IMG/VR virus record: IMGVR_UViG_3300009151_000001
Location: 1-64,000 of that record
DNA: 64,000 nt
Strand: one strand, 5' to 3'
Source: a virus
Taxonomy: Duplodnaviria; Caudoviricetes
The position numbers were made by a program, and so were the translations under genes. Below, one piece after another: positions 36,347-57,300 of the stretch. Position 1 is the stretch's first letter. The number at the start of each line of letters is the position of its first letter. The notes below the pieces were generated by a model. That model did not search any database, was not told where the DNA came from, and saw only the letters and a list, made by a program, of their open reading frames with translations.

Positions 36347-39300
36347 ATGCCAGATACATTAAACATACTTCCAACCCCGGATACATCAGCTGCTGATTTA
36401 CAATTATCAGAACAGAGATATAATGATATGGAAAATAGAAACATAGAAAGTCAAAGAAATGATATATCTTCTATGTTTCATACTGATACACCAGTTAGTT
36501 TGGTAAATGGTCAAACTATAAATGATCTTATTAATCAAATAGATGCTATACAAGCTAAAACTAAAAATTTAGCTAATAATATAAATATAAATCTTAATAC
36601 ACCTAAACAACAACCGGTTTTTGATATATCTAAAGCTGCTTCTCAAATATTAGGATCTTTAAATAATAATCCAGAAACAACGTTTAATAAACAAAAACAA
36701 CTGGTAAGTCTTGGATCAGGAGAAGATCTTGATAGATATAAACAAAGTGATTATTATAATGTCTTTGGTTATAATCCATATATAGGAAAAGAACAAGAAT
36801 TTAGATATGGTGAAGCTATGACTATAGGTGATGTTCTTAAAAAAGCCGGTGGTGGTGCTATGAACTTAGCTTTACAAACTGGTTGGGAAGGTGTAAAAGG
36901 AACTGGAAGAATACTAGATTCTTTAATATCATTAGATCTATCTAAACTACATGGTAGTCCTGAAGAGTTATATCAGATGGCTGAAGATCAACAAAAAATC
37001 TTTGATAAATACGCTATATATGATACAGCTGAATCAGCTCAAGGTGGTCTGTTTAATAGACAGTTCTTTGGTAACATGTTACAACAAGCGGGATTTGCTA
37101 TAGGAGCTGGAGCAGAGATGTGGTTAGAAGGTGTTATAACAGGTGGTATAGCTGATTTCTTTTTAGCTCCTGAATATGGACTTTTAGCTTCTAAAATGGT
37201 AGGTAGACTTGGTGAAACTGATGAAGCTATTCGCGTTGCAGCTGGTCTTACTGAAAGAACGAGTACAATAGATAAAGCTAATAAAACATTTAACAAGATA
37301 GGTAAAATGTTTACTGCTGATGAAGCTATCAATGATATGCGTAAGATGAGTCAGCAAGTAACAGAAGCTAGTGGTATAAGTAAAAAAATAGGAGAGTTTG
37401 GAAAAAGCTTAGTTCCTTTATATGGTACTGCTGAAAACTTAATAAAACTTAATAAAGCTGGAGCTGGTGGATTACAGTTAGCTGTAGAAGGTATAGGTGG
37501 TATACATAGAGCTTTGAGTGAGATTAATATGGCTCGTTCAGAATCTATATTTGAATCCGCTTCTACATATAAACAACTACATGATAAATTAGTAAAAGAT
37601 TATATAGATGCTAATGGACAAGCTCCACAAGGAGCTGAACTAGAAAGAATAAAAAAACTTTCTGAAAACGCTTCTTCAGATAACTTCTGGGTTAATATGG
37701 GAGTGTTATCTGTTATGAATAGAATGCAGTTTAGTAATATGTTTAAAACATTTGACGGATCTCGTTCTATATTTAGTGAAGGTGTTCATTCTTTAGAAGA
37801 TCAAGCTTTTGAGGTAACTGGCAAGATAGCTGGTAAAACTGAAAAAAGAGCTTTTGTTAAAAGTCCTTATTTTGGTAAACTAGCTGCTATAGGTGAAATA
37901 GCTCAAGAGTTTGGTGGTAAAACAGCGGCTTGGGAAGCTACTAAAACTGTTGGTGGTAGAATGTTTAAGATGGAAGGGTTAGAAGGTTTACAAGAAATGA
38001 TACAAAACGCTTCTGACAAAGGTCTTGAAGATTATTATTACGATCTTTATCATTCACAGAAAGGATATGGTACAACATATCTTGGTAATGTAATGAGTAA
38101 GTATGATAAAATACAAAATGGTTTTGTTGATCAAATACCTTTTATTGGTAAAGATGGAGTAGAAGGTCTTAAAACTTTTGTAATGGGTGCTTATACAGGA
38201 GCGCTTCTTTCTCCTATGTATAAAATTATTGGTATTACAAATCAAAGATTTCAAGATAGAAAACAACTTAAAAATGATCCTACATATAAAACAGCTCAAC
38301 AAAGAGCTAAAGAAAGTGTAGATCTTGTTAATGCTTTTTACACAGGTGATAAAACAGCTTTTAAAAAAGAATGGATTGCTAGTGTAAAAGTACAAAATAA
38401 AGCTGCAGAAACAATGGAAGAAGCAGCTAAGAACCACGATAAATATGTTTTCTATAACGCTAAAGATTCAGCTTTTAATAAGATGGTTGAAGCGTCAATC
38501 AAACTTAATATGTTTGATTCTGTAAGAGATCATATAAAAGAAATGGGGGCAGCTCTAAAAGATGATGAAGAGTTTAAACAAGCTTATGGTATGGAAGCTA
38601 CCAAACAAAACCGTGGAAACGTAAAAGCTTTCATGGATAAAGTAGCTAATGATCTAGAAGACTATCATTCTTTACGTACTCAACTTATAGATAAATATGC
38701 TGACTTAGTAATGCCAGAGTTATATAGAAACAATGGTAAAGAAGTATATGAAAATATGAAAATAGCTCAAAGCGCTGTCTTTGATGCTATAGATATATTA
38801 ACTTTTAATATTCAAAAATCTAGACAATCTGTTTTAAGAGCTGAAAGTATTAGAAAAGATTTAGCTTCTATAAAAAGTATAGGAGCCTCAAGTAATAATA
38901 TATTGATTAAAGCTGGTAATCCAACCTCAATAAAAGATTCTATTAATATATTACAAGATGAGATAAAAGGAATGACTATTCCAAATACTACATTATCTGG
39001 AGAACAAAGAACACTACTATCTAAAAAACAAGAAGAACTAAATCTTCTTAGAAAGTGGGAGAACGTACACTATGATGTGATGACTGGTGAGTATGATAGT
39101 TATACTCCTGATATCTTAAAAAAAGAAGCATATGGTGTATTTAAAGATCTTACTAATTTTTACAACAAACAGAATAAAAATCTGTCTACTATATCTACAC
39201 AAGATTCTGAAAATGCTTTTATTGGTGTATTAGATCACATGAAACTTAATAGAGATGAGAAATCTTATATTGATGCTGTAAACCTTTTAGCTGATCCTAG

Positions 39301-42300
39301 AAACGAAAATTTAATAATATACGCTAAAGCTGCTGCAGCAGCTATATCTGTTGTTAATGACAGAATACATCAAGAACATTTAACAGCGGTTAATAATACA
39401 ATAAACGCTGGTGAAGAAACTGAAACAGAAGAAGATGTTAAAACTATAGGTGATTACACTATAAAACAAAATCAAGATAAATCATTTAGTGTATTTGATT
39501 CTGAAGAAAAAGAAATAGCTAAAGACTTAGCTACACATGATGACGCGGAAGAACTTATTAATAGTATTGTTAAAGAAGCTAATAAACAACCACCAGAACA
39601 AAAACAAACTTCTACACAAGAGAAAACATTAGAAGAACAAAAAGCTGATATAAAAAGAAGACAACAAGAAGAATTAAATCAAACTCAAAAATTTACTATA
39701 AATAGGGCTAATAAAGATTTAGAATTAGCCCCTGAAATAGAACTTTCTGAGATTGATTTAGAAAAATCAGGTTTGGGGGATCTTCAAAAAGCAGAAGTAA
39801 AAAGAGTAAGAGTTTTAGAATACAGAGGTATAAATTCAGAAGGTAAAAGAGTTGGAACAGTTATAATACAAACTAATGATTCTATAGAAACTTTTGAAGT
39901 ATTTTTTAATGATGTTAAAATTAATTCTAAATATGAAGCTATATTAGCTAAATTAGAAAAACAAGAAAAACCTAAAAAACCAGAAGAACCAAAGGGTATT
40001 ATATATCTAGATCCAGAAAGTAATGAGTTTAAACAAGAATATAATAACGCTTTAGATAAACTAGCTAGTGTTGTAAATCAACCTAATGCTACACCATCTG
40101 CTATAAAAGCTGCGTTTGATGATTTGTTTAATAACACTCTTATTAATCTTGATCCTTCTTTAGCTGCTAGAGCAGCATATAAAGAAAAACTTAAAGAAGA
40201 GATGGATACTTTAATATCTGAAGCTAATCGTAAGATTAAAGCTAATAATGTAACCGGAGCCAAACAATCTATCTCAAACTCATTTAAAAACGAAGAGTCT
40301 TCTACATTAAATGATATAGCTAATGATTCAGAAAATATATTAGACGAACTTAATCCTGAACATAAAGAAGAAGTTATACAACACTTTGAAACAAACTTTT
40401 TACAAAGTATTGGTAAAAGAATATCTAATCTTTTATCTAAAGCTAGTGAACTAGCTGGTGGTGAGTTATTATCATTCTTTAAAAAAAGCGCTAATGAAGC
40501 AAAAGAAAGAGTAACTAAAAATCTTGATAAATATAAAGAAGAATCAAATAAGATCAAAGAATCTATTAATAAAAGTGGTATAAGAATTAGTAAGATTAAT
40601 ATTAATGAATTTTTTGATAATCCTGTTAATATGAGTATACAGGATGATGAAAAAAACAGAGATAAATCAGCAACACCTGGACAATTAATAGCTATTGACA
40701 ACTTAATAAATTCTGGTATATTAGAATCTAATGAAACAAACAAATCTCTTCAAGGAGCTAGTTATTATATTAACCAAGGTGTAGGAAGAATATACACAAT
40801 AGAAATTAATAAACTTGTAAATAGTTATTTTAAATTAAAAAATAGTAAAACAAGTAATACTACAGAAGTAAATAATGCGTTAACTAGTTTAAAAGCGTCT
40901 GTTAAATCATATCTTGAAAGTTTTTCTACTGATCCTAAAGAAGATGTTCAAGCTGCTTTTGACGCTATTGAAAAAGCTAATGATCCTGATGAATTATTAG
41001 GTATATACGATAATGAGGGAAACTCTAAACCATTACAAGTAGAAAAATCTAATCAAAAAGATTTATCAGATGAAGAGTATAAATTATTAAAAGAGTTTAG
41101 AACTTCTTTATATAATATGCAGTTTCAAGGTAACTTGATGAATGTTCATAATAATATAGAACAAGCTGAACAAAACGCTTTATCTAATAGTGAAAGATTA
41201 AGACCAGAAGACTTAGTAACATCTGATCTTATAAATTCTATTCCAAATTCTTTATTTAAAGACTCTAATACCAAAAATAGTTTAAAAAATTCTATCATTT
41301 CTTTATTAGATTCTATAAAAGATCTTAATGATAAAAAAGAAATCAGTTCATTAATAAATAAACTATCAATAAAAGAGTTTAAATCTGGAGTAAAAATAGA
41401 AGGTGAAGGTATAATTAAAAGTATATACGCAACTTATTTAAATACTCAAACAAGTATAAATGAGGAAGAACAAGTTGGTCCAGTGTTATCTAAAGAGGAA
41501 ATGTTAACAGCTTTAGAAAATAGTAAAACAACAATTCTTAATAAAGCTCAAATAAATCAAGTAGATGAGTTTGCTAAAACAGAACTATTAAACGCTTATA
41601 AAGCTAAACTTAACGCTGCTATTGGATATTCTACTAAAGATTCTACATATACTCCTGAAAAACTAGGTTTAAATGAAGAACCAGGTGAAACATTTTCAAC
41701 GTTAAGACAAAAGTTTGCTGGTGATATAAGAACAGCTGAGGATCTTAAAAAAGATCTTAATGCTCAGGGTGATCAAGTATCTACTAAGAATGCTTTAAAC
41801 TTTATTGTAAATAGTGATTTTGCTACAGATGCTGAGAAAGAATTAGCTAGAAGTCTAATGAACGCTATCTCTGAAGATAGCTTTATAACATTAGCTAATA
41901 ATTCTGATTTTAAAACACCCACAGCTGGTGATTTTGATCCTAACACTAATAGAATCAGAATCAATATGAACGCTGTAGAACATAAAGATGGATACACTTC
42001 TTCTCCTATAGAGACAGTTATATTACATGAGCTTATACATCAGTTAACTGAAACAGCTTTATCTGACCCTAATAGTGAATTTTATAAAGGAATATCATCT
42101 TTGATGGCTGTTGTTAAAAAACAAAAAGGAGCTGATACATTTTACGCGTTCCAATCTAAACTATCTAATGATGAACAACGTCATGAGTTTGTAGCGGAAG
42201 CTTTAACTAACCCTGCGTTTCAACATTTATTAGCTAGTACACAATATGCTAACAGTAAAACTAGTGTATGGGATAAACTATTGGATATTATTAATAGGGT

Positions 42301-44542
42301 GTTACAAGCTGTCGGTATTGATGTAAGAGCTACAGCTCTTTCAGAAGTATTAAACTTAACTGGTGATTTATTAAATCCAGTGGATCCGGGTAGTTTTGTA
42401 GAAGCACAAAGTATAACAAGAAGTATAACTGAAGCTAAAACATTAGATGAGTTAAAAGCTATCAGAGAAGACTTATTTAATAATAAAGATATAACTAAAA
42501 TAAGTGAAGCTACTTTTAATTCTATGATTAATCTCATCTCTGGTAAAGAGAAGAGTATAAATCAAATGAAGATAAGAGATCAATATGAAAAGACTCATAC
42601 AGCAATAAAAATAAATAATAAAATCTACCATTATAAGTTAAATGATAATGGTAGATTATCTATTGTGTCTTTATCATCTACTGGTGTTAATAATGTCAGA
42701 AGTCAGAAAGTAATTGATAGTATTATTAATAATATTCTATCTAAAAAAGATGGTGTTAAAACACTACTTTCTAAAAATACTATTAACGATATAACACAAG
42801 AACTAAATAATTTAAAAGATAAAAATAAAATAAATAATTTATTAAAACAAAGCCTTGGTGTAAAGATATCTGATGATATACAAACTAAAATAGAAAATAA
42901 GTTGTTTTCTCAAGATATTCCTGTAGACCAAGGTCTACCAGAAACAGAAGTGATTGAGAATGATGTTCCTGCTGGTGGAACAACTACCACTGGTTCTAAA
43001 TCTATAACAGAAGCTGAAATAAATAAAAGTACAGCACAAAATCTAAAAGGACTAAGATCTTTTAATAGTGATGGGTATATAGATAGAAATACAGGTGACT
43101 TTATAGAAAACCCATCTTTTACAAAGTATTATAGTAAAATAAGAAGTATTATAAACGCTTTGTCTATAAAAGATTTAAGTGAGCTCAAAGACTATCATGT
43201 TACAATAGATAAAGATAACGAACATATTCGTTGGGATGATTCTTTTGAAGATCCAGGAGTTAAAAATAATCTAGGAATAGTTGGTTTTATTTCTGATGAA
43301 AAAGGAAATCCTATTGTATTTAATCCAAAAGGTGAGAAAGTAGGTGTAACAGATAGAAACAATCTATCTGACTATAAAGGATTACGAAATGGTGAAAATC
43401 AAATAGTATATATATATACTATAAATGAGAATAAGAATAAAAATAAAGATAATATAAATCCTGAAGAAATAAAACTAATTAAAGCTGCTAAAGAAGAAGC
43501 TTTAAAAGGTAATCCTCAGATATCTAGGTTAACTAAGATTAATCAAGGTAGAGCTAATACAAAGTCTAACATTAATAAAACTAGTTCTCAACTTAAACAT
43601 ACAAATGAAAAAGACTTTGTAGATAAACTTAGTCAAGATAATGTTACATTCTCACTTGATTTAACACCATCCGATAAAGAAGCTGGTAAAACTGGGGGAA
43701 GCTTATTAGTTCACATTAATGATTCAAATGGATCTGTTCATACAGAAGCTTTACAAGCTCCTAAAGTGGGTCAAGTAAGTATATCAACAAAAGATGGTAC
43801 GTTTTCTTTATTTGAATATGCTATTGATCTTATGAAAACTTATAGAGGTATGAGTGAACACATGACTAAAGATGAATTATCATATACACAATCTAATTTG
43901 AAATATTTTTTACAACATGTGTTCTTTTCTAAAAAAATAAACATGGGTGGTGAGTTTAAAGTGATAGAATTAATTACTCCTGAGAATAAACAAAAAGGAA
44001 TAACAAAAAGTGTAGATTCATATTTTATGTTTAAAAAAGATAAAAACGGTAACTATCAAACTATAGATGAAACTAGTGAAGCTTATAAGAAAGTTAAAAA
44101 ATGGATTAATGACTCAAAGTTAAACGTAGATAAAGAATGGTTACAAGGTAGACCATTTATGTTTCCTATAGTTAAAACAGATGAGAATGGTAAAAAAATG
44201 ATTACCTTTGTAGAGAAGGATTATGTTAACTTCTTATTGAAAGAAGTTGGTTTTACTACATATATGAATGATGTACCAACAGTTGATAATGTTAAGTTTT
44301 ATAATTCTATAGTTGAGTTTGGTAAACCTGAAAATCTAAATAGTACTGTACAACCTACTAAGTTAACAGAACAAAATATTGTTAATAATCCTAATGCTGT
44401 AGAAAACGAAATAAAAGATACTATACAAAAAATTGATGCATCTGATATTGATTTAGATAGTCTTCCTAATTTAGGAAATGAAGAAAACTTTAGACTTGTT
44501 CCTGCAAATAACAAAAAAATATTCAATATAAACTGTAAATAA
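36347..44542 (+). CDS. Giant ejected virion protein with zincin-like metallopeptidase domain
   Basis: 2731 aa with ILHELIH (42026-42040) and downstream HEFVAEALTNP.FQ. It has Gly/Ala-rich hydrophobic N-terminal helices and an EG.E..QE motif. Confidence 0.75.
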   Translation: MPDTLNILPTPDTSAADLQLSEQRYNDMENRNIESQRNDISSMFHTDTPVSLVNGQTINDLINQIDAIQAKTKNLANNININLNTPKQQPVFDISKAASQILGSLNNNPETTFNKQKQLVSLGSGEDLDRYKQSDYYNVFGYNPYIGKEQEFRYGEAMTIGDVLKKAGGGAMNLALQTGWEGVKGTGRILDSLISLDLSKLHGSPEELYQMAEDQQKIFDKYAIYDTAESAQGGLFNRQFFGNMLQQAGFAIGAGAEMWLEGVITGGIADFFLAPEYGLLASKMVGRLGETDEAIRVAAGLTERTSTIDKANKTFNKIGKMFTADEAINDMRKMSQQVTEASGISKKIGEFGKSLVPLYGTAENLIKLNKAGAGGLQLAVEGIGGIHRALSEINMARSESIFESASTYKQLHDKLVKDYIDANGQAPQGAELERIKKLSENASSDNFWVNMGVLSVMNRMQFSNMFKTFDGSRSIFSEGVHSLEDQAFEVTGKIAGKTEKRAFVKSPYFGKLAAIGEIAQEFGGKTAAWEATKTVGGRMFKMEGLEGLQEMIQNASDKGLEDYYYDLYHSQKGYGTTYLGNVMSKYDKIQNGFVDQIPFIGKDGVEGLKTFVMGAYTGALLSPMYKIIGITNQRFQDRKQLKNDPTYKTAQQRAKESVDLVNAFYTGDKTAFKKEWIASVKVQNKAAETMEEAAKNHDKYVFYNAKDSAFNKMVEASIKLNMFDSVRDHIKEMGAALKDDEEFKQAYGMEATKQNRGNVKAFMDKVANDLEDYHSLRTQLIDKYADLVMPELYRNNGKEVYENMKIAQSAVFDAIDILTFNIQKSRQSVLRAESIRKDLASIKSIGASSNNILIKAGNPTSIKDSINILQDEIKGMTIPNTTLSGEQRTLLSKKQEELNLLRKWENVHYDVMTGEYDSYTPDILKKEAYGVFKDLTNFYNKQNKNLSTISTQDSENAFIGVLDHMKLNRDEKSYIDAVNLLADPRNENLIIYAKAAAAAISVVNDRIHQEHLTAVNNTINAGEETETEEDVKTIGDYTIKQNQDKSFSVFDSEEKEIAKDLATHDDAEELINSIVKEANKQPPEQKQTSTQEKTLEEQKADIKRRQQEELNQTQKFTINRANKDLELAPEIELSEIDLEKSGLGDLQKAEVKRVRVLEYRGINSEGKRVGTVIIQTNDSIETFEVFFNDVKINSKYEAILAKLEKQEKPKKPEEPKGIIYLDPESNEFKQEYNNALDKLASVVNQPNATPSAIKAAFDDLFNNTLINLDPSLAARAAYKEKLKEEMDTLISEANRKIKANNVTGAKQSISNSFKNEESSTLNDIANDSENILDELNPEHKEEVIQHFETNFLQSIGKRISNLLSKASELAGGELLSFFKKSANEAKERVTKNLDKYKEESNKIKESINKSGIRISKININEFFDNPVNMSIQDDEKNRDKSATPGQLIAIDNLINSGILESNETNKSLQGASYYINQGVGRIYTIEINKLVNSYFKLKNSKTSNTTEVNNALTSLKASVKSYLESFSTDPKEDVQAAFDAIEKANDPDELLGIYDNEGNSKPLQVEKSNQKDLSDEEYKLLKEFRTSLYNMQFQGNLMNVHNNIEQAEQNALSNSERLRPEDLVTSDLINSIPNSLFKDSNTKNSLKNSIISLLDSIKDLNDKKEISSLINKLSIKEFKSGVKIEGEGIIKSIYATYLNTQTSINEEEQVGPVLSKEEMLTALENSKTTILNKAQINQVDEFAKTELLNAYKAKLNAAIGYSTKDSTYTPEKLGLNEEPGETFSTLRQKFAGDIRTAEDLKKDLNAQGDQVSTKNALNFIVNSDFATDAEKELARSLMNAISEDSFITLANNSDFKTPTAGDFDPNTNRIRINMNAVEHKDGYTSSPIETVILHELIHQLTETALSDPNSEFYKGISSLMAVVKKQKGADTFYAFQSKLSNDEQRHEFVAEALTNPAFQHLLASTQYANSKTSVWDKLLDIINRVLQAVGIDVRATALSEVLNLTGDLLNPVDPGSFVEAQSITRSITEAKTLDELKAIREDLFNNKDITKISEATFNSMINLISGKEKSINQMKIRDQYEKTHTAIKINNKIYHYKLNDNGRLSIVSLSSTGVNNVRSQKVIDSIINNILSKKDGVKTLLSKNTINDITQELNNLKDKNKINNLLKQSLGVKISDDIQTKIENKLFSQDIPVDQGLPETEVIENDVPAGGTTTTGSKSITEAEINKSTAQNLKGLRSFNSDGYIDRNTGDFIENPSFTKYYSKIRSIINALSIKDLSELKDYHVTIDKDNEHIRWDDSFEDPGVKNNLGIVGFISDEKGNPIVFNPKGEKVGVTDRNNLSDYKGLRNGENQIVYIYTINENKNKNKDNINPEEIKLIKAAKEEALKGNPQISRLTKINQGRANTKSNINKTSSQLKHTNEKDFVDKLSQDNVTFSLDLTPSDKEAGKTGGSLLVHINDSNGSVHTEALQAPKVGQVSISTKDGTFSLFEYAIDLMKTYRGMSEHMTKDELSYTQSNLKYFLQHVFFSKKINMGGEFKVIELITPENKQKGITKSVDSYFMFKKDKNGNYQTIDETSEAYKKVKKWINDSKLNVDKEWLQGRPFMFPIVKTDENGKKMITFVEKDYVNFLLKEVGFTTYMNDVPTVDNVKFYNSIVEFGKPENLNSTVQPTKLTEQNIVNNPNAVENEIKDTIQKIDASDIDLDSLPNLGNEENFRLVPANNKKIFNINCK

Positions 44543-47500
44543 TGGCGTGTTCAGTTAATCTACAAAAAGACAAACTACCTAAAATAATAAACAAAGTTGA
44601 ATACTTCTTATTCCGCGCGATGGAAAAAGAACAACTTGATTTTGCTGAAGTTGCTACTAATAAAAGTAATAACAGAGATGTTATATCTAATGATGATGTA
44701 AAAGCTTTTATTGAAGCTTCTAAGAATGGTCAACCTAAAGAATTTAAAGGTAATGATCCATATCTTGATCCAGTAACTGGAGCTTATATTCCAACACCTG
44801 AAACAGCTAGATGGGTGTTAGCAGAAGATGGGTTTTATAATCTTGTAGATGGTGATAATATTCTTACAAAAGGTGTTGATTTAAAATCAGGTAATCAAGT
44901 AAGTAACGTTGTTCGTCTTTTAAATACAGTAAAAAATACTATGATACCTGAAGCTGTAAATAAATATACAGCTACAGCTAAAGCTTATGAGAATAGATCT
45001 AAAACAGATAAAGCTTTACCAACCGATCTTAAAAACGCAGAATTATATCAATCATTTGCTACTAATCTACAGTCGCTTATTCCTATGTGGAATCAAGTGG
45101 TAGCTAACTTTTCTAAATATAGTACACAGTTTAGTTTTAAAACTAAATTTACTTTAGATGAAGATGGGCTTGTTAATCTAGATGACGTGGCTGATGATGA
45201 TGACAAGATGTTAAAGAAGATGGTATTTGATCAACCATCTAATGAAATCAATCCTGTAGATGATATAGATAAAAGTATAGAACTATATCTAAGAAGTCTT
45301 CAAGAAGCACCTAATCAATATGATGAGTTTGGTCCAGGACTATCTGTAAATTATTCAACCCTTGTTCGTGGGTTACTTGCTGATTTACAAAATACAACAA
45401 GTATGGACGAAATCATAAGTATTCTTAATAAGAAAGCTGAACAAACTCCAGTATATAAAGATATAATAAAAAAACTTACACTTCCAGATAAAGAAACTAC
45501 AAAAGACCTGGATACATATATTAAGTTTAGGAACTCTTTTACTAAAACCTTTATTCCTTTAATGCTTGTGTCTTTAGAAAGTGATAACACTGTAAAAGTA
45601 ATTGAAGCAGCTACAGGTAAAAAAGGAACATTTGAAAGAGTTATAGGATCTAACTTTTCTCTTAAAGGTATGCCGTTTATTATGAACGCTACAAATGGTG
45701 AGGTTGTTAATATAGGTCATAGAAACGAAGATGATGAATGGGTATTAGATCATACTGATTTACCTAAATTAGAAAAACTTAATATATATAATGCCAAAGA
45801 TAAAGATGATACAGGATCTATAGATAGAAGAATAGAGTTTCTTAAAGCTATAGGATTTGAATTAACTCCATCTACAGAAAAACAATTAAGAAATAATCAA
45901 AGTATTGTAGGTGGAGGTAGATATAACGCTGTAAACGCAATGTTTGAACATCTTAAATATAGACTTGAACAAGGTGACGTTATAAAAAATGTTATAAATA
46001 GTTTAAAAAAAGATTATGTAGTTGATGGTGATATAAAAAGTAAAGGTCAAGATAGTTTTATTACTGATATTGTAAACGCTGAATTAAAAAATAATAGAGA
46101 CTATAATGTTGACTATAGTATGGTTAATGCATCTGGAGATAGACAATACTCTATACAGCTTCATAATAACTTTACTATTCTTAATAAGTTCTATTCTGAT
46201 GTAGAAATATATCCTAACTTAGATAGCATAAGACAAGAACCTTCAATGTTCTGGTTAGATCCTGAAAAGAATCCAGCTATAAAAAATGATCCTATATTAA
46301 ATAGTCTTTTTTATTTTAAACCAGGAGAAGACAATTACGGTGATCGTAAATATGTAATAAAAATTGTTAAAAAAGAAAATAATAAGTTTATCATAACTTA
46401 TGAGTTTACAAATGATAAAAATAAACAAGGAGCTTTACCAGTACAAATAACTTTTAACAATACTGGTGGTGTAAATACAAGATTTGATAATGAAAGATCT
46501 AAAGGATCTTCATCTACTTCTTTAAATGAAATAGATAAACTATTACAAGATATATATTCTTTTTATTCAAAAAAATATTCATATAATAGTGTATTAAGAT
46601 TAGGTGATAAATCAACTGATCTTGGCATGTCTGTAAATTATTACGCGCATCCTATTACCGGTAAACCAGTTGTTACTGAAAAAAATACTCTATCTAGTAA
46701 TCCTTTAGGTGGAGTGGATAATTATGCAACAGTATTTAAGTCTGATGTTTTTTTACAATATGTAATAAACGGTATACAAGATGTAATGAATATGAAACGT
46801 GCTGCTCAAGAAAATGATTTCTTAAGTAAGTATAAGGTTTCAGCTAAAAACATACTTAACTCTTGGAGTTATTTTGATAAGATATTATCTTCAGAAACTA
46901 AAGATAAGTTAAAAACTATAGATAGTGCTGCTGATGTTAAAGAATTAATAGCTAAAGATATTATAACATATTTTGAAGGTGAAAACGGTGTTGTAAAAGA
47001 TTTTCTTAATAGATTTAAGGATGCCAGAAAAATAAACACTATATGGAATAACACCTCAATTAGTTTTGATTCAGCTGTTCGCTATTATTTAGCTAATAGT
47101 TTTATTACTGATATGAGTCAAATGAGACTCTTTTTTGGTGATCCTATATTCTTTAAAGATTTTCATAAAAGAGCTTCTAAAGATTCAGCTACAGGTATAT
47201 TTACATTTATAGATGACGAGCTTATTAAAAGGTTTAATGATCGCTCTAATCCAAATGGTTATGGAGCTACAATGAATCTATCAGCTAGACGACTTGCGGA
47301 AAGAGTATATCAACAAAAGTTAGCTGAGTTAGAAAGTAAAAACTTAAAAGAAAGTCAAAAGAAAGCTTTTAGAGATAAATATAAAACTGAAAGAGATCAA
47401 GCTATAGCAAGACAAGATATAAGTAAATCTTTTAAATCAGCTACACTACAAGATATTGATTTTAATAGCTTACAAAGTGAAAAAATTATAGAAAATGTAG

Positions 47501-50500
47501 ATAATCTTATTAAAGCTGGTCATTTATCTGAAAAGATGAAAACTTTATATGAACAATCTTTAAAACGTGTTATCCAAGACGGATATAAAAAAGGTAATGA
47601 AGCTGATGGTCAAGGTAAATGTACTTTTGATTTCTATAAACTAATGAGTATACTTACAGGTCAATGGAGTGATGATCAAGAACGTGTTTACAAAAAGATT
47701 GTAGATTACGCTCACTTTAGTGAATTAGCTGAGAATGAAAAAGATAGTGAAAAACGTTTAGAGTATATCAAACAAAGAGACGCGGTTGGATACAATCCTT
47801 CTGAAGAAGTTTATTTTCCTCCTAAAAAGTTTCAATATTCCGGAACTGAAAATAATGAATATGGAATGTATGTTCCTATATTTGATAAATTTTCTCTTCA
47901 ACCATTGATTCCTACTAATATAAAAAGAACAGCTGATGAACACTTAGCTAAAAGAATGGAATATAATGGTATTGGGTATATCAAGTTTGAAAGTGGTACA
48001 AAAACTGAAGTAGTTAAAGATAAAGACAGCTATTATAGTGAATATGATAAAAACAATCCTTCAGAAAGATCTATACTTCCTTTTAGTCCTGAACAAAAGT
48101 TTAAATCAGAACAAGAACTATTCTTTAATAATTTTAAAGAACAGCTTACTATAGATGCATCTATTCACGATCACGCTGTATTTGGTTCACAGATAAGAAA
48201 GCTTATCTTAATGAACTTAGATAAAGAACAGTTTAAACAACACTACAATAACTATAATAAATTTATAGCGCATCTTACTGAGTTAGAAAAAACAAGTCTT
48301 TATAATGAGATGGGAATAAACCGTGTAGATGGTAGACTTCATATATCTGATATAAACAAACTTGTTGATTATTTCTTTAAAGAAATAGACAAGAAGAATC
48401 AAGATTCTAATGTTAGAAAAGCTTTAAAGTATGATGAACAAACTAAAAAGTTTGAGATTCCTTTAGATGGATCTGTACAAGCTCAAATACTGGAAGGTAT
48501 TGTTATATCTGCTATTAATAATAGAGCTGTTAGATACAAAACTAATGGATCTATGTTGACCCAGGTAGCTATCACCGGGTCCGAACAAACAAATAAGTTT
48601 GACAAAGCTTCTTCAGATAAAGCATATAAAACATTTGGTAATAAAGAACTTAACTATTACAGCGTTGATAAAGATTCAACTGGTAAATATATAGTTAAAC
48701 CAATGGAAGTTAAAATAGCTTTAACTGGTCAATGGTTAAATCTATTAAATTTAAGTCATTATGATGGATACAAAATAAATAGTATAGGTAGATTAAACGA
48801 TTGTTTAAAAAATGAAAGATGGTTTGAAGTTAATAAAAGAAGCTTAGAGCTGGTAGCTTATCGTATTCCTACACAAGGTAGAAATTTTATGGATGTGATG
48901 AGAGTAAAAGAATTTATCCCTGCTTCATTTGGTGACGCTATCATAATGCCTAGTGAGTGTGTCATTAAATCTGGATCTGACTTTGATATAGATAAGATGT
49001 TTGTATTCTATCCTAATCTTAATCAGAATGGTGAGGCGCCTAATAATTCTTATACGGATAATCAACTTAAAGATCCAAACAACTATAAAGCATTAAAAGC
49101 TAATATTCAAAATAAGCTTTATAACACAATGTCTGATATCATATTAGATCCGGCTAACTATTTAGAACTTGTTACACCATCTGATAACTTTCATATAATG
49201 CCTATTATAGATGATATATATAAGTTATTAGGTAAACCTGTAAATAATGAAGGAAAACATATTAAATCTGACTTTGTTAATACAGATATAGTTAATCGTA
49301 ATATAAACATAGATAAGTTTATAAGTTTATTAAAAGGTAAATCCGATCTTGGTATTGCTGCAATAGCTAATACGTTTAATGTATTATTTCAACATGGAAA
49401 AGCTACTGGTAATACTAAATTCTTTACTAGTAATAATATCATATCTTTCTTTAATATCAAAGATTCTTTAGAAAAGGAAGAACTTATTATAAAGAATATA
49501 GATTACTCAAGTCCATATGACGAAGAAGGTGTATTAAAAAGTGAATTCTTTTCTGAGTTTATCAACGCTTTTGTTGACGCGGCCAAAGATGACTATGTAT
49601 TTGCTGTAAACGTTGTAACAGAACTAAGTCCTATAATGTTCTATATGAAATATGCAGGTATGTCTTCTAAAAAGATATTAGGGTTTGTAAACCAACCAGC
49701 TATTCGTCAATATATTAAAACACTATCTACATATCAAAATAAATTTGTAAAAGGAGAACAAGCTTTTGATGATGGTGTTAAAACAATAGTTTTAAGAGAT
49801 ACATTAACTAAATTAGGATATGAATTTAGTCAATCAGATATAGATCCAGAAACTGGATTTAACAAATATGGAACAAGAAATGGTATACAAGAATATCTTT
49901 TTGCTAGTAATAAACCTATAAATATAAATGAACTAATATCATATTTTAATAATGATGATAAGTTATTTAGTCAAATAAAAGATCAAAATATAAACATCAA
50001 TAGTCTTACAGATGATGAAAAGAAAAGACAGATTGCTTTTTTATTAGAGTTACAAAACTTAAGACTTCAGTCTAATAGTATTTCTGAAGCGCAAAAAGTT
50101 TTAAAGTTTGATACGTCACCATTTAAAAATACATTTGACATCTACCAAAGAGAGCAGATGTATAATGATATGATGAGTGGAAACAATGTATTAAGTCCTG
50201 AGTCTATTAGTAATATATATCATGATAGTACTATTAGTCCATTAAACGTTTCAAAAGATATAAAAGCGTTATTATCGTCATTGTTTCCTATAAGAAATAA
50301 CGATGAGCTTAACAACTTTCTTCTTAATAAAGCTATAGCTTATAAAAACGAAATGAGTAAAAATGGAGGAACATTCGTAACTAATGATGATATAATGAAA
50401 ATATCTCGTGTAGCTAAAAATGATATGATGAACTATATCCTTCAGAACTTAATAAGTAAGTCTGAAAAAGGTGTAGCTTATTTTAAAGAAAGATATAATA

Positions 50501-51315
50501 CTGATAAGTCGTTTAATGAATATTTGTTAGAATTAGCTCAAACAGATAAACTAAAAAATAACTGGTTAGCTATTAAAGAGTCACCAAGTTATAAAAGTAT
50601 GGCTGCTCAGTTTCCTATATTAAAAAATATTATTATAGAAAGAGGTGTTAATAATGGTAGAATTGTTAACTTTAGAATACTAGAGAATAGTTCTAATCCA
50701 GTAGAAAAAGAACAAACAATACAACAATTTGAAGATCTTACTAACAGTTCTAATGAACAACTATCTAGTTTCTTTAAGGATCTGTCATTGTATTCTATAT
50801 TCCAATCTGGTATGAATACTTCCGATATCAGTTTTATGTCTGTAGTACCAACTAATATAGTGAGTAGATTGTATGGTAGCGCTGTGGAGGAATATAATAA
50901 ACTTCCTAGTGAACGTAAGACAGCTATGTTGTCTACGTTTTATAAAATGTTTACAAGAAACAATCCTGAGTTATTTAGTAGAAAATCAACAGATACATTA
51001 ACAAAAGAAGTATCTAAAAGAGGTAAATGGTATTCTGAACAAGTACCGTTTAATGAAGTATCTAAGATACAAGTGTTACAACCTATTAAAGAAACTACTA
51101 AAGAAAAAATTAACAATCAAGAAAAAATAGAAGCTCCAGTTAAAGTAGAAGAATCATCAATAGAAGAAAAGATTAGTAAATGGTTTGAAAAAAACAAAGG
51201 AGAAGAGTCAATTAAAAACATACCTTTACAAGTTATAGTTGAATCATATAATCAAGAAAGAATAGGAAATCAAACAATAGAAGAATATCTAATTGATAAA
51301 TTCGGTTGTCAATAA
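44542..51315 (+). CDS. Virion-packaged single-chain two-barrel RNA polymerase (crAss-like, phi14:2 gp66 type)
   Basis: 2257 aa with catalytic GSDFDIDK (DFDID at 48979-48993), upstream YRIPTQ, ADGQG and VDAAKD. Confidence 0.9.
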   Translation: MACSVNLQKDKLPKIINKVEYFLFRAMEKEQLDFAEVATNKSNNRDVISNDDVKAFIEASKNGQPKEFKGNDPYLDPVTGAYIPTPETARWVLAEDGFYNLVDGDNILTKGVDLKSGNQVSNVVRLLNTVKNTMIPEAVNKYTATAKAYENRSKTDKALPTDLKNAELYQSFATNLQSLIPMWNQVVANFSKYSTQFSFKTKFTLDEDGLVNLDDVADDDDKMLKKMVFDQPSNEINPVDDIDKSIELYLRSLQEAPNQYDEFGPGLSVNYSTLVRGLLADLQNTTSMDEIISILNKKAEQTPVYKDIIKKLTLPDKETTKDLDTYIKFRNSFTKTFIPLMLVSLESDNTVKVIEAATGKKGTFERVIGSNFSLKGMPFIMNATNGEVVNIGHRNEDDEWVLDHTDLPKLEKLNIYNAKDKDDTGSIDRRIEFLKAIGFELTPSTEKQLRNNQSIVGGGRYNAVNAMFEHLKYRLEQGDVIKNVINSLKKDYVVDGDIKSKGQDSFITDIVNAELKNNRDYNVDYSMVNASGDRQYSIQLHNNFTILNKFYSDVEIYPNLDSIRQEPSMFWLDPEKNPAIKNDPILNSLFYFKPGEDNYGDRKYVIKIVKKENNKFIITYEFTNDKNKQGALPVQITFNNTGGVNTRFDNERSKGSSSTSLNEIDKLLQDIYSFYSKKYSYNSVLRLGDKSTDLGMSVNYYAHPITGKPVVTEKNTLSSNPLGGVDNYATVFKSDVFLQYVINGIQDVMNMKRAAQENDFLSKYKVSAKNILNSWSYFDKILSSETKDKLKTIDSAADVKELIAKDIITYFEGENGVVKDFLNRFKDARKINTIWNNTSISFDSAVRYYLANSFITDMSQMRLFFGDPIFFKDFHKRASKDSATGIFTFIDDELIKRFNDRSNPNGYGATMNLSARRLAERVYQQKLAELESKNLKESQKKAFRDKYKTERDQAIARQDISKSFKSATLQDIDFNSLQSEKIIENVDNLIKAGHLSEKMKTLYEQSLKRVIQDGYKKGNEADGQGKCTFDFYKLMSILTGQWSDDQERVYKKIVDYAHFSELAENEKDSEKRLEYIKQRDAVGYNPSEEVYFPPKKFQYSGTENNEYGMYVPIFDKFSLQPLIPTNIKRTADEHLAKRMEYNGIGYIKFESGTKTEVVKDKDSYYSEYDKNNPSERSILPFSPEQKFKSEQELFFNNFKEQLTIDASIHDHAVFGSQIRKLILMNLDKEQFKQHYNNYNKFIAHLTELEKTSLYNEMGINRVDGRLHISDINKLVDYFFKEIDKKNQDSNVRKALKYDEQTKKFEIPLDGSVQAQILEGIVISAINNRAVRYKTNGSMLTQVAITGSEQTNKFDKASSDKAYKTFGNKELNYYSVDKDSTGKYIVKPMEVKIALTGQWLNLLNLSHYDGYKINSIGRLNDCLKNERWFEVNKRSLELVAYRIPTQGRNFMDVMRVKEFIPASFGDAIIMPSECVIKSGSDFDIDKMFVFYPNLNQNGEAPNNSYTDNQLKDPNNYKALKANIQNKLYNTMSDIILDPANYLELVTPSDNFHIMPIIDDIYKLLGKPVNNEGKHIKSDFVNTDIVNRNINIDKFISLLKGKSDLGIAAIANTFNVLFQHGKATGNTKFFTSNNIISFFNIKDSLEKEELIIKNIDYSSPYDEEGVLKSEFFSEFINAFVDAAKDDYVFAVNVVTELSPIMFYMKYAGMSSKKILGFVNQPAIRQYIKTLSTYQNKFVKGEQAFDDGVKTIVLRDTLTKLGYEFSQSDIDPETGFNKYGTRNGIQEYLFASNKPININELISYFNNDDKLFSQIKDQNININSLTDDEKKRQIAFLLELQNLRLQSNSISEAQKVLKFDTSPFKNTFDIYQREQMYNDMMSGNNVLSPESISNIYHDSTISPLNVSKDIKALLSSLFPIRNNDELNNFLLNKAIAYKNEMSKNGGTFVTNDDIMKISRVAKNDMMNYILQNLISKSEKGVAYFKERYNTDKSFNEYLLELAQTDKLKNNWLAIKESPSYKSMAAQFPILKNIIIERGVNNGRIVNFRILENSSNPVEKEQTIQQFEDLTNSSNEQLSSFFKDLSLYSIFQSGMNTSDISFMSVVPTNIVSRLYGSAVEEYNKLPSERKTAMLSTFYKMFTRNNPELFSRKSTDTLTKEVSKRGKWYSEQVPFNEVSKIQVLQPIKETTKEKINNQEKIEAPVKVEESSIEEKISKWFEKNKGEESIKNIPLQVIVESYNQERIGNQTIEEYLIDKFGCQ

Positions 51316-51326
51316 ATAAATAAATT

Positions 51327-54300
51327 ATGTTAATCTGTCCAAATAAGTCATCAAAACAATGGAAAGAGTTGTCAGATAAGATAGGTTCTAGACAAGCCAT
51401 GTTAGCTTTTATCCGTAATGGAAACGAAATACCTGAATCTGAAGCCAAGGCTAGAGAGTTAATAACAAATAGAGGAATTTTAGAAAGTCTACGTAATATG
51501 CCTAAACTTTCTGAAGATAATATATTTGGTACACTAAAAGCTAATGATTTTATTACTGATAATCAAGTAAAACGTGAGGGTAAAACTTGGTACCAATTAG
51601 CTGACATAGAAAACATTGGTAAAAGACTTGGTGAGTATACTGAACAATACGGTCCTATATTAGAATATGATAATGGATATGTTACAGTAGCTCAAGAGTC
51701 TGTAGATGCTTGGAACAAAGTAGCTGAAGTACAATCAGCTGAAAAACTTACATCTACAAGATTAGCTGAAGAGTTTCTAGATAAAATGGGAATATCTATA
51801 CAAGAAAGAAATGATGTATTACAACGTTATGGATCTAACGGTATAGCTGATATAGCTGAGCGTATGGTGTTGATACAATCAGGTATGCGAGATGTAGCGC
51901 TTCCGGAAGAAGCTTTACACTTCTTTTTAGAAATGCTTCCCCAAGATCACCCAGCTTTAGTAGAAGCTTTAGATAAGATAAGAGACAGGCCTATATATAG
52001 TCAGACACTGAATCAATATAAAAACAATCCAAACTATAGAATAGATGGTCAAGTTAACTTCTCTAAGATTAAAAAAGAAGCTTTAGCTAAAGAGATAGCT
52101 GCTAATATAAAATCTAAAGATAGTCAAACCTGGGTGGGTAGAATAATAGATGGTATATTAAACTTTATTAAATCTATTACTATACAAAAAACAGCTACTG
52201 AAAAACTTCAAGATTTATTCTATAGTGATAATATAGGTAATCTAAATAAAAACCTTAATTCATCAGAAATATATAATCAATTATCTGATGAATATAAAGC
52301 ATTCTATGAAGCTCAGCTTAAAGAAGCTACAGAAGAACAAAAGCAAACTATACAACAAGTATTAAAACATACAGCTTCTATAAACTTTAATAAAGAACAA
52401 CATATTCTTACACAACATAATGTAGCTGAACCTGACGGTGTTCGTCTTAAATCTGTTACACAAGTGTTGGGATCTGACTTCTATAGTGATTTAGATCATA
52501 TACAAGCTGTTCAAACTATTTTAGAAAACTATGCTGAACATTTTCCAGAAGTAACTAATAGTGATAAGGTAAATAAATATATTGATTCATTAAGTTCTAA
52601 CTTAGATACTGATGAAAAAGAAAAGTTGATTAATAAGTTTAAGTCTAAAGAAATTATTAATTATATAAGTAAAGAACTAATGGACCCAGAATCAGGTATT
52701 GATAAAGAGTTTATTGAAGCCTTTACTCCTGACTTAGCTAATGATATATTAAAAACTGCTGAAAACGCTAAAAAAACATTATTTGGAACAGCTGTACATA
52801 GTATTGTAGAAAGTATTATATTAGGAAAAGATATAGACTTTGATAATATAGACCCTATTATTGAATACTTTATGGATAAAAAAACTCTTCGTGAGTTAAT
52901 TTATGGTAAAGGATTAAAAGACACAGGTATAAAAGGATTATTACAAGAAATCCAAAAAGATGGAACTGTATTAATGACAGAAGTAGAAGTTGGTAATAGT
53001 AATCTTGGAGGTGTTATAGATATTGTTGGTGTTAAACCTGACGGAACTGTAGATATATATGACTTTAAAACTAAGTTTTTAAAAGAACATACTCGTAATA
53101 AAGAAAATATTAAAGAAGAGTTTGAACAAATTACACGTGAACAATCTATTTTTGGTGTTAAAAACGATCCGGATACTCTTCAAGATGTAGTTGATAAAAA
53201 ACGTTCTCTTAATCAGAAGTTTACACAACAGCTTTCGTTATATAAAAATATATTAATGGAAGCGGGTATACCAGTTGATAAGTTAAATATCATAGGTGTT
53301 CCTTATAGACTTAATGAAAATGGAAAAATACGTGAAATAAAACCATTTGTTGCTGATCCTATAGGATATAATGACAAGATTGGTAAACATCTTTTTAATA
53401 TAACTGATCCATCTTTGGATGCATCTAAAAAAACAGCTAAGACAGTTAGTATTGAGGATGAGCGTACTAAGACACTAGATAAATTAAGTAAAGAAGGTTT
53501 AAAAGAAACTTTTACTAAAGCTTTAGTAAGACTGGAAGAACTTCGTAGATTTTTTAATACAAGTAAAGATTCAAGAAAAACATATGAACTTCTTACAGAC
53601 TTAGAAACTAAAGTTAATAAAGTAGATGAACAAAGAACTATTGTAAAAACTATTCTTGATAACTTTGAAAACTTTAATGATGCGGCTACATTATTAAATG
53701 CTCAAAAAAGTTTACTAGAAGTAATTGACTCTTCAGTAGGTATTATACAAACCGTTACTAAAGAGTTTGATCGTTTAAAATCTTTACAATCTACAGATGA
53801 AGTTTCAGCTCAACAACGTATAAATGAGTTACAAAAAGTAAATGATTTTATTTCGGGATATGAAACGATATTTAAAGAGATGTTAGGAGCCATTGATAGT
53901 AATAATCTTGATAATCCTTTAGTTAAACGTCTTGTTGATTTATTAGGTGTCACATCTAGTATAAAAGATCAATATATAAATAGTATTTTACCGGATGTTG
54001 TTAATCTAATAAAAGATGAGTTTTCTGAAGAAGGTATTGAAAACATGAGAAGAACTTATACAGAAAACTTAATAGCTGCTAAACAAAGAGGTGATATCAA
54101 ACTAGCTGAAGATATTCAAAAAAGAATAGATGGTCTTCCTTCAAAAGAAACTATCGCTGAAACTATTAAAGGTAATAGAGGTGATGTTGGTTGGTTCTTT
54201 GGTAAGTTTGTAGCTACTATATCTAATCCTGATATGATATTAGCTGGGGTAGCTAAACGTTTAAAACGTGTATTAGATAGAGTAAGATTGATGAATAAAG

Positions 54301-57300
54301 ATTTAAGAGATAACTTAGGTAAGGAGTTTGATAAAAGAACCGCGGCTTATGGTAGAAATATTGACCCTAAAAAAACAAATGAATCTCTTGTATATAAAGT
54401 TAAAGAGTTTAATTCATCTACAGGGAAAGAAGATATGACCGTATTATATTTTAAAAGTGAATATGATGAAAAGTTATATAATGATTATAAAAAACTTCAG
54501 TATAATTTAAAACAAGCTCAAGAAGAAAAAGATGATACTAAAATAAAAGCTGCTAGACTAGCTGTTAAAAACTTTGAACAAAAATATTTTGAAAGTAATT
54601 TTACTTCTGAGTATTTTAAACTTACAGGTATTCTTGATAAGAATGTAACGTATGGGGGTAAAAATACAACAGTAAGAGAAATAGTAGCTGATATCTTTGA
54701 TAAACTTAATTCCATACAAAGAAGGAGTAACTATACAGATGAAGACATCACTAATGGAAATATGAATGATGAAGATCTTCAAGAACGTTTTGAGCTTCAA
54801 CAACAATATGCTTCATTAAAAGAAATGAAAGATTCTTTTGGTAATCCAAAAACTGGAGAAGATCTAAAGATTGCGGAAGCTTTAAAAGAGTATGAAAAAA
54901 ACTCAAGACTTATATATGATTATGTAGAAATGACTACATTATTTAATCGTAAAGAACAAGAGATAAAATTAAAATATGGAGAGAATAGTCTTGAACATGA
55001 ACAATGGATAGCTAAAAATACTAAGCTAACTACTATACCTGAATACTTTACTCGTAGACAAGAAATATTTGATAGGATAAAACAAATCAATAATAACGAT
55101 AATACTTCTGAACAATTAGCTGAGCTTTATAGAGAGCTTAGTGTATTATCTAAACCTTATAGAGATATTGATGGAAACATTCAGGCTCAAAATATGAAAC
55201 CTGAAATAACTGAAAAGATTAAAAATATTGAAAGCGAGATAGTAAGACTTAGACAAAACATGGATGGTTTTATTATGAACGGTAATACTGCAGAAGAAAA
55301 AGAAGAGATGAAAAAACTTAATTTCTTAAAGTATAATGATAAACCTTATGATAGAGAAAGATTAAATGAATTATATACTATTGGTAAACAACGTCTTGAG
55401 GATAAAATAAACTCTGATCCAGACTATGAAGCTAAGTTTGATGAAATGACTAGTCTTTTAGAAGAACTTTCTAATATGAGTAAAAAAGAAATTACCGATC
55501 ATTACTTTAATGAGCTCGAAAAACAAAAAAGATTATTTGCTGAAGCTAATAATGTTAGTTATGAAGAGTTTATGAAAGATAAAGATCTTTATCAAGAGTT
55601 TAAAAATAGTGACTGGTTTATTCAAAATCATAACATTACAAAAACTGTTTTGGAAGAAGGTGATGAGGATGATGATGAAGCAAAAGGATACTCAGTTGAA
55701 GAACCTATATGGTGTTGGAAACGTAATATGCCAGTAGAAAAATATATAACAAGAAAACCGGCTGATCACTTCTATAAAAGAGTGTTAAAAGATTCTTATA
55801 CTGATGAGAATGGTAAAGAAATAAAACTTAAGAACACTGACAACAAAGATGTACAAGATAGATATAAACCTAAAAGTAATGAAGATTATAAAAAAGAATA
55901 TGGAAAAGATCATCCATATCTAAATAAAGAATTCACTACATTAAGAGATAAGTATAATAATAATACAGCTTCTGAAAAAGAAAAAGTTGATTATGAAAAT
56001 TTATTATTTATTCATAAAGTACAACTAGACGCTCAAAAAGATATAGAATTATCTCAAAGATTAGGATTAGCTGTTTCATTCCAAGAAAAACATGGATTAG
56101 AAAGAACAATCGAAAGTGGTGGTAACAATATATTACAAAAAGGTAATAGTATATGGCAAGGTGTTAAAAGATCTTTTACATCTACAGAACAAGATATTGA
56201 TCAAGAAGGTCTAGCTTCTTCTAAAACTCAATACTCAAGATTAGCTACAATGGATAATAATGAGTATAAGTTTGTTCCAGTAAGATTTTCTACAAAAGGA
56301 GATGCTGATAACGCTAGTTATGATGTATGGGGAGCTACGTTAAACTATGTAGCTGCTATTAATCGTAAAAAAGAACTTCAAAAAGAGTTTGCTCTTATGA
56401 ATGGATTAGAAAAAATACTAGGTGATGAAAGTAATCAACCAAAAAGTGAAACTAATAATCTTATAGCTAATAGTATTTTTAAAAAGTATTTTCCTGAAGC
56501 TGCTGATAAAAAAATAAACAGTGGTAGTAATGTAAGATTAGATGTATTAAAAAGCTTTGTAAATACTATATTATTTAATGAAGAGTCGTTTAAAGGATAC
56601 GAAGTATTAGGCGCTAACTCTCAGAAAGTAGTAAACCAAGTAATGAAACTCATATCTAGAACTACACTTGGTATTGCTCCTTTTAACTGGACAACAAACT
56701 TGATATCTGGGCATGTTCAAAATGTTATAGAAGCTGTTGGTGGAAACAACATATCATTAAAAAAAGTTATGGAAGCCAGAAAGATTATATACACAGGATC
56801 TAGTAAATATGGTAATCCTATAAAAGATATGATAAGTGATTACACAAAATCTAAAGTGGGTAATCTTTCATACTGGGGTCAATTAATGGAAGTATTTGAT
56901 CCTATTCAAGGTGAGTTTGAAGATGAATATGGTCATAAAACACAAATGAATACTATTAAAAACATTCTAAACTTAGGTGTATATGGTGGTAGAATTTGGG
57001 GTGAGTGGGAAATACAAATGGGAACTTTTATAGCCTACATGTCAAATAATAAAGTATATGATGGTAAGGTTATGGATAGAGAAACTTTTATTACTAAAAA
57101 AGTGGGTGATATAACCGGATTATCTCTTAAAGAAATATCTTCTAAAAAACTAGATGCTATAAAAGAATTTGATTCTTTAGAAATATCTTTATTAGATATG
57201 TTTGAAAAAGATAAAACTGGTAAACTAGTTGTTAAAAATGAATATAAAGATGTATTCCAGTTGGGTAGTAAAGAGTTTAGTGAAATAGTAGCTAAGTTAC

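Follow-up and report, generated by a model that had tools for sequence, protein, structure and literature searches.

Why should three giant phage proteins that are otherwise very low in cysteine (Cys) keep this residue at just those ends that face one another? The question is raised by the central part of a 64,000-nucleotide stretch of viral DNA (Duplodnaviria; Caudoviricetes), here called the window, which covers positions 1 to 64,000 of the IMG/VR virus record IMGVR_UViG_3300009151_000001, a record of 124,635 bp with direct terminal repeats. The window holds in its central part three co-directional giant open reading frames (ORFs), P1, P2 and P3, which sequence comparison identifies as packaged (cargo or ejection) proteins of a crAss-like phage, packaging itself being known for phi14:2 and crAss001 only. 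Our answer is that head-to-tail disulfide bonds probably join the three proteins into one chain of about 824 kDa, equivalent to a fused polyprotein. The three proteins and the four Cys codons on which this proposal turns are located in the window as follows, with lengths in amino acids (aa).

36347 to 44542, plus strand: P1, giant cargo protein of 2731 aa and 305.8 kDa, first member of the proposed chain, with Cys at 2730 only (ORF call, computed mass).

44534 to 44536, plus strand: TGT codon of P1 Cys2730 (penultimate, ..NINCK), proposed C-side partner at junction 1; the column is invariant in an alignment of five close relatives.

44542 to 51315, plus strand: P2, virion RNA polymerase homologue of 2257 aa and 259.0 kDa, middle member of the proposed chain, with Cys at 3, 1027, 1421, 1473 and 2256 (ORF call, homology to phi14:2 gp66).

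44548 to 44550, plus strand: TGT codon of P2 Cys3 (start MAC), proposed N-side partner at junction 1; invariant column C3 in alignment A1.

51307 to 51309, plus strand: TGT codon of P2 Cys2256 (penultimate, ..FGCQ), proposed C-side partner at junction 2; invariant column in alignment A4.

51327 to 58067, plus strand: P3, giant cargo protein of 2246 aa and 258.7 kDa, last member of the proposed chain, with Cys at 4, 1463, 2055 and 2097 (ORF call, C-part homology to phi14:2 gp65).

51336 to 51338, plus strand: TGT codon of P3 Cys4 (start MLICP), proposed N-side partner at junction 2; alignment A2 has C4, P5 and N6 as invariant columns.

An earlier, sequence-only reading of the window had described P1 as having a single, penultimate Cys, the RNA polymerase P2 as starting MAC, ending FGCQ and holding three further Cys, and the 2246-aa P3 as starting MLICP with three further Cys and none at its C-terminus. 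All of this is confirmed. Its estimate that about 4 of 10 Cys in some 7200 residues sit at the internal junctions, with the outer ends bare, is likewise borne out: P1-P3 contain 10 Cys in 7234 residues, four of them lie within 4 residues of the four neighbour-facing termini, and the two outer ends of the set carry none, with no Cys near the C-end of P3. The string of about 800 kDa that it had envisaged has a summed mass of 823.6 kDa. The six internal Cys of P1-P3 are far under the frequency in the other 29 ORFs of the window, which have 126 Cys in 13,133 residues (0.96%). Against that background, the chance of finding a Cys at all four facing ends is about 2e-6 with ends of 4 residues and about 3e-5 with ends of 8 residues, and chance is not a plausible cause of the layout.

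Relatives were gathered by a search with P2: among 92 matching stretches, 88 could be confirmed, and 80 were retained as loci with 10-kb flanks. Together with phi14:2 and the window these provide 82 polymerase cores, ranging to about 22% identity, which reduce to 54 clusters at 90% identity once 28 cores are dropped as at least 90% identical; the P1, P2 and P3 regions of 184 ORFs of at least 900 aa were mapped by jackhmmer. Junction counts refer to the 54 cluster representatives, and a Cys is called terminal if it lies within 8 residues of an end. Kehishuvirus, cr118_1, cr56_1, crAss002, cr85_1 and crAss001 were treated separately, outside the 54.

The sequence-only reading had proposed tabulating the Cys positions of related giant proteins, and the tabulation finds the terminal Cys conserved, paired, and absent on fusion. 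A Cys is present on both sides of 70 of the 72 junctions between consecutive chain ORFs; the remaining two have an N-side Cys only (locus L040) or no Cys (L002). Outer C-ends never carry one (0/51), and complete outer N-ends do so within 8 residues in 5 of 40 cases. On the C-side, 0-6 residues (most commonly 1) separate the Cys from the end; on the N-side, it occupies position 2-7, most commonly 3 or 4, in a stereotyped motif, M-x(1-3)-C, often with C-P-N. Internal Cys are rare throughout, at 134 in 310,658 residues (0.043%) of the chain proteins of all 54 clusters and 22 in 256,870 (0.0086%) in the 44 low-Cys clusters. The junction pair is also kept in 19 loci (a subset of L036-L075, e.g. L045) whose long ORFs emerge only with TAG read as Gln; the TAG-recoded loci have 13-64 in-frame TAG codons per giant ORF and, at 4-13 per protein, far more internal Cys than other clades.

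Named phages follow the same plan. The cleanest case is phi14:2, in which the facing ends hold all 4 Cys of the 5398 residues: Cys 1797 of 1797 in gp67, Cys 3 and 2179 of 2180 in gp66, and Cys 3 in gp65. The pattern is present in records of Steigviridae, Suoliviridae (cr118_1, cr56_1) and Intestiviridae (crAss002), and conservation of the terminal Cys is order-wide.

The strongest evidence is the covariation of these Cys with gene architecture. Five clusters are fully fused (L029, L031, L044, L054 and L061; 4627-5346 aa), with the P2 and P3 regions both present, and contain no Cys at all. L060, in which P1 is separate and P2 and P3 are one ORF, has exactly one Cys pair, as do many loci in which P1 and P2 are joined and P3 is separate. 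The break in L021 is shifted into the N-part of the P3-homologous region, and the Cys pair is found at the shifted break; L027 has an additional break within P3 and an additional Cys pair. Terminal Cys number 0, 2, 4 or 6 per set, i.e. two per junction and one per end. Taken row by row, with the later start (Met14) used for L077, a Cys among the 8 N-terminal residues of the polymerase-bearing ORF is matched by a separate P1 in 42/42 rows, and one among its 8 C-terminal residues by a separate downstream ORF in 54/54. On an IQ-TREE phylogeny inferred quickly from the 54 cores, the state at the P1/P2 boundary changes at least six times and that at the P2-P3 boundary at least twice, and the phylogenetically independent contrasts are concordant in 5/5 and 2/2 cases, respectively (7/7 pooled, p 0.016 by our own arithmetic). 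Loss of the Cys on fusion and their movement with the break point are what would be predicted for a covalent substitute for the peptide bond.

In the window the three genes adjoin closely.

44540 to 44544, plus strand: TAATG, in which the P1 stop codon overlaps the P2 start codon (sequence read).

An 11-nt gap separates P2 from P3 (TAAATAAATAAATTATG, window 51313-51329), and overlap and gap are both compatible with translational coupling of the three genes. The Cys pattern is independent of such adjacency. The gene for crAss001 gp47 (2341 aa; only Cys 2339) is on the strand opposite gp50 (2412 aa; Cys 5, 1334 and 2404) and gp49 (only Cys 5), and in Kehishuvirus tikkala, cr85_1, L078 and L080, P1 is convergent on the other strand and retains its C-terminal Cys. 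Gene order, which the sequence-only reading had built into its chain, is consequently not needed, and the persistence of the pattern with P1 on the opposite strand marks it as a feature of the proteins and not of the gene junctions.

The five outer N-ends that do carry a Cys are accounted for. Four of them face a P1 that the length filter had missed: those of L020 and L028 face partial upstream P1 ORFs (below the 900-aa filter) that end ..FGCE and ..NENPC, and those of L078 and L080 face convergent giant P1 ORFs on the minus strand that end ..KCRV and ..HCR. The fifth, that of L077, is by sequence comparison a miscalled start, as its first ATG overlaps the upstream gene and its Met14 (MTKR..) is in line with L030 and L033, which start MAKR... 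Two anomalous-looking loci dropped at dereplication retain the Cys if a frameshift (L011) and a non-ATG start (L068) are taken into account. In L011, a poly-K (A-rich) frameshift near 16029-16072 splits the polymerase-bearing ORF, and the frame that continues still has ..NKKC as its end, with MSAC next; L013, nearly identical, is unbroken, and the frameshift reads as an assembly error or homopolymer slippage. L068 has no ATG at the homologous P3 start, where the frame reads ..LAKKGCINK (cf. MAKKGCINK in L066). In crAss002 (L085, NC_055828; 16941-17045), the start annotated for gp33 precedes an internal MSCTPSNP by 32 codons; the terminal-Cys rule predicts that the Met of this motif is the true start, which would widen the gap after gp32 from 170 to about 266 nt.

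Does a terminal Cys pair of this kind form a bond in any virion? A precedent comes from outside the Crassvirales, in the structure that cryo-electron microscopy gave for the pre-ejectosome of cyanopodophage A4 (Anabaena phage A-4L, Saffermanviridae), in which a disulfide is modelled between gp27 Cys1715 and gp26 Cys5 (PMC12002296, PNAS 2025). In the A-4L record, the gene for gp27 (1717 aa) is followed by that for gp26 (1114 aa), and Cys1715 and Cys5 are the sole Cys of these proteins, so that the upstream protein has a Cys 2 residues from its C-end and the next protein a Cys at position 5, a layout like that of the window. The same signature occurs in 3/3 phages of other Saffermanviridae genera (Pf-WMP3, Pf-WMP4 and TR020), with gp26 identity of 23-27%. 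In the sole case with a structure, the signature therefore coincides with a real disulfide. Like the crAss cargo, gp27 and gp26 are internal proteins of a short-tailed phage and are expected to be ejected; unlike the crAss module, A4 has one pair only and no virion RNA polymerase, and the available text treats the bond as a structural detail of the fivefold ring, with no chain or comparative rule (PMC12002296). A phmmer comparison of A4 gp26, gp27 and gp28 with the 184 crAss giant ORFs found nothing at E up to 10. As no sequence or fold similarity is detectable, the likeness between A4 and the crAss-like phages appears to be one of mechanism, not descent. To our knowledge, there are no fused forms in the Saffermanviridae.

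Within the Crassvirales, the module formed by phi14:2 gp67-gp66-gp65 or crAss001 gp47-gp50-gp49 is like that of the window in its homologous polymerase and its terminal-Cys layout, and the cargo proteins of both phages are present in the virion by mass spectrometry (record notes; Bayfield et al., PMC10172136). Masses of 262.5, 276.9 and 154.5 kDa are given for crAss001 gp47, gp50 and gp49, which sum to about 694 kDa (Bayfield et al., PMC10172136). The available text of the phi14:2 preprint (10.1101/2020.03.07.982082) contains no occurrence of "cystein", "disulfide" or "Cys". Inter-subunit disulfides are described in crAss001 virions, in the part of the report available for tail proteins and gp57 only (Bayfield et al., PMC10172136), which implies that thiol oxidation occurs even for a gut phage. 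Some crAss-like phages encode the three proteins as a single fused polyprotein that is supposed to be cleaved (10.1101/2020.03.07.982082); it has the same modules in the same order as the window and differs in having no Cys, and in our reading such forms do by peptide bonds what the proposed chain would do by disulfides.

A further comparison concerns the Cys that are missing. Ejected proteins of the Schitoviridae (N4 gp50, DEV gp71-gp73) are nearly Cys-free against a proteome value of about 0.9%, which has been ascribed to passage through the oxidising periplasm (PMC11445570). Like the proteins of the window, they are giant ejected proteins, a virion RNA polymerase among them, with Cys far below the proteome; they have no Cys at all, whereas the crAss proteins keep one per partner-facing end. 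Against this purge, the retained terminal Cys of the crAss chain proteins stand out as selected.

The claim of the sequence-only reading that no such arrangement had been described stands for the Crassvirales, where searches of literature available to us in part, supplementary files and extended tables aside, turned up no description of terminal Cys or disulfides in cargo proteins. It does not stand for phages at large, since one such bond has been published for A4 (PMC12002296). What would be new relative to A4 is a serial chain that includes the virion polymerase, a rule that extends over the order, and interchangeability with peptide-bond fusion.

By analogy, a disulfide would be the simplest chemistry for the junction pairs, and it is made credible by the disulfides of crAss001 virions and by the A4 bond. 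P1 Cys2730 would be bonded to P2 Cys3, and P2 Cys2256 to P3 Cys4. The thiols would be oxidised as in the A4 gp27-gp26 bond and the crAss001 tail disulfides, and would pair between those ends that are neighbours in the polyprotein. Such a tether would secure 1:1:1 co-packaging of the three proteins, and the cargo could then leave through the narrow tail as one thread, the stubs past each Cys being only 0-7 residues long. The reducing host cytoplasm would then separate the parts. Least secure in this proposal are the order in which the proteins exit and their release by reduction. Protein trans-splicing by split inteins was considered as another route and rejected: no intein family is found by Pfam in P1-P3, and Cys at 0-7 residues from the ends leave no room for intein halves.

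Extended beyond this genome, the proposal becomes distinctly more doubtful. It is conceivable that at least two unrelated short-tailed groups, the Crassvirales and the Saffermanviridae, string their ejected proteins together by terminal disulfides as a reversible stand-in for peptide bonds, the crAss thread being about 0.6-0.8 MDa with the RNA polymerase at its middle and 1:1:1 stoichiometry, leaving the capsid unfolded through the tail as a single string and being cut into active parts by the reducing cytoplasm.

Several observations weigh against a disulfide-linked chain. The cytoplasm in which particles assemble is reducing, and gut crassviruses live anaerobically. The case for the bond in crAss virions is built on comparison and analogy. 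Thioredoxin (PF00085) was unmatched in the 124,635-bp genome. Erv1 (PF04777) was unmatched there as well, but the control likewise matched no control genome, which makes this result uninformative. Mass spectrometry of reduced and unreduced crAss001 virions is described with no high-mass cargo species in the text available, although none was sought there (Bayfield et al., PMC10172136). If the fused polyproteins are cleaved, as has been suggested (10.1101/2020.03.07.982082), and their Cys-free parts work unlinked, the link would not be essential. Gut and TAG-recoded clades have 4-13 internal Cys per protein, so that the ends-only rule is relaxed in them. The independent contrasts are few and taken separately give p 0.0625 (five contrasts) and p 0.5 (two). 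In L040 (2946-7181), the single P1 Cys lies 31 residues from the C-end, within a Ser/Thr/Lys-rich low-complexity tail and with no sign of a frameshift; this is a real deviation from the rule, and the only clear one. P3 of L002 is split without Cys, which is probably a frameshift or assembly error because homology runs on across the 108-nt gap. The C-side Cys of crAss001 gp50 lies 8 residues from the end.

Could the terminal Cys form covalent links in some other order than that of the chain? They might make homodimers, join P1 to P3 with P2 closed on itself, or bind the cargo to portal, capsid or tail partners, and we regard this as unlikely, though deserving a hearing, since sequence alone cannot tell which thiol meets which and several disulfides join subunits of other proteins in crAss001 virions (PMC10172136). 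Co-folding of P3 residues 1-300 (alignment A6) with the C-terminal 150 aa of P2 (A5) gave scores of 0.34, 0.36 and 0.29 against 0.00, 0.19 and 0.00 for controls, and weighs neither way on binding. What speaks for chain order is that two-protein forms allow one hetero-pair, between the upstream C-end and the downstream N-end; that fusion removes the two Cys of a junction at once and a new break brings in both; that a one-sided Cys within 8 residues is seen at only 1/72 junctions and outer C-ends have none (0/51); and that the A4 bond joins an upstream C-end to a downstream N-end (PMC12002296).

A Cys-metal-Cys clasp in place of the disulfide, raised already in the sequence-only reading, appears improbable. 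Paired thiols can bind soft metals, and a clasp would withstand the reducing cytoplasm during assembly. Each end, however, offers a single Cys, with no conserved His or other ligand adjoining it in four termini alignments; the Cys come two per junction, with no fixed set of four; and the analogous pair of A4 is modelled as a disulfide (PMC12002296). A zinc clasp with three or four shared ligands was rejected on the same count of ligands. Just as small a chance attaches to a role that involves no link at all, such as a modification site (e.g. acylation) or a recognition mark for packaging or a protease. The stereotyped N-side motif could be a recognition site, but fused forms drop all terminal Cys though they would still require a packaging or membrane-anchor signal, the outer C-termini are without Cys, and gain and loss affect both sides of a junction jointly. 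Chance, start-codon artefacts or a nucleotide-level junction signal such as translational coupling are scarcely credible in spite of the P1-P2 TAATG overlap and some miscalled database starts, given the low odds for this window by itself, the pairs at 70/72 junctions in clusters down to about 22% identity, the persistence of the pattern in non-adjacent or opposite-strand genes, and a Cys offset that varies with no fixed nucleotide word conserved, the convergently encoded P1 genes ruling out a nucleotide-level cause.

The assignment of P1-P3 to the crAss-like cargo module, on which the proposed disulfide chain depends, draws on pairwise homology and on two short motifs.

42026 to 42040, plus strand: HELIH (HExxH) motif, P1 residues 1894-1898 (regex match).

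48979 to 48993, plus strand: DFDID motif, P2 residues 1480-1484 (regex; phi14:2 gp66 has DFDID at 1361).

P2 matches phi14:2 g066 ("Catalytic RNA polymerase subunit") by tblastn at E 3e-19 and gp66 by blastp at E 2.7e-24, and DFDID is the catalytic-site motif of crAss-like virion RNA polymerases (10.1101/2020.03.07.982082). P3 residues 1618-2140 match phi14:2 gp65 825-1345 (blastp E 3e-12). P1 is homologous to P1 of L001 and L003-L005, and its residues 1792-1990 (window 41720-42316) match gp65 143-338 at 23% identity (blastp E 7.7e-10 in a three-protein database), which places the HELIH motif inside a stretch resembling the zincin-like N-part of gp65. Direct similarity between P1 and phi14:2 gp67 was not found, and P1 is gp67-like by position. 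The HExxH stretch is carried by the last chain protein, gp65, the counterpart of P3, in phi14:2, unlike the window, where it is in the first, P1, and P3 keeps the C-part of gp65 only; judged from this placement, modules seem to move along the chain.

Wider searches returned little. Pfam gave no family for P1, P2 or P3, with a single sub-threshold unrelated match, and PHROGs gave no match; phmmer of P2 against PDB sequences gave 0 matches, and megablast of window 44000-52000 against GenBank phages matched nothing. An AlphaFold2 model of P3 residues 1-300 has a mean pLDDT of 75.8, with residues 1-9 as a coil preceding the first helix, and Foldseek of this model against PDB gave 0 matches at E <= 0.001, hence no link in fold to A4 gp26 or any other entry.

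Other ORFs of the window differ in Cys content. The 1027-aa protein directly upstream of P1 (33255-36338) and a 293-aa protein farther upstream (26903-27784) have no Cys and may be Cys-purged cargo outside the chain. Two proteins at 15416-17065 and 11765-13129 are Cys-rich: one begins with MSSCPGCH and has six Cys up to residue 45, and the other has 17 Cys and ends ..KTCS. By sequence, both seem to be metal-binding clusters with no relation to the chain.

Among the phages of the human gut, crassviruses are the most abundant. How a near-megadalton mass of protein, polymerase included, passes through their narrow tail is described in a hypothetical model only (Bayfield et al., PMC10172136). A covalent, redox-sensitive chain, if true, would give this problem a concrete and testable form, with the cultured phages crAss001 and phi14:2 sharing the signature. 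The terminal-Cys rule itself is a simple finder of true starts and frameshifts, as in crAss002 gp33, L077, L011 and L068. If true, the chain would also account for the free fusion, splitting and strand moves of its genes and for the purge of all but the junction Cys; splitting or fusing the genes would in that case be almost neutral, hence the many architectures of the module.

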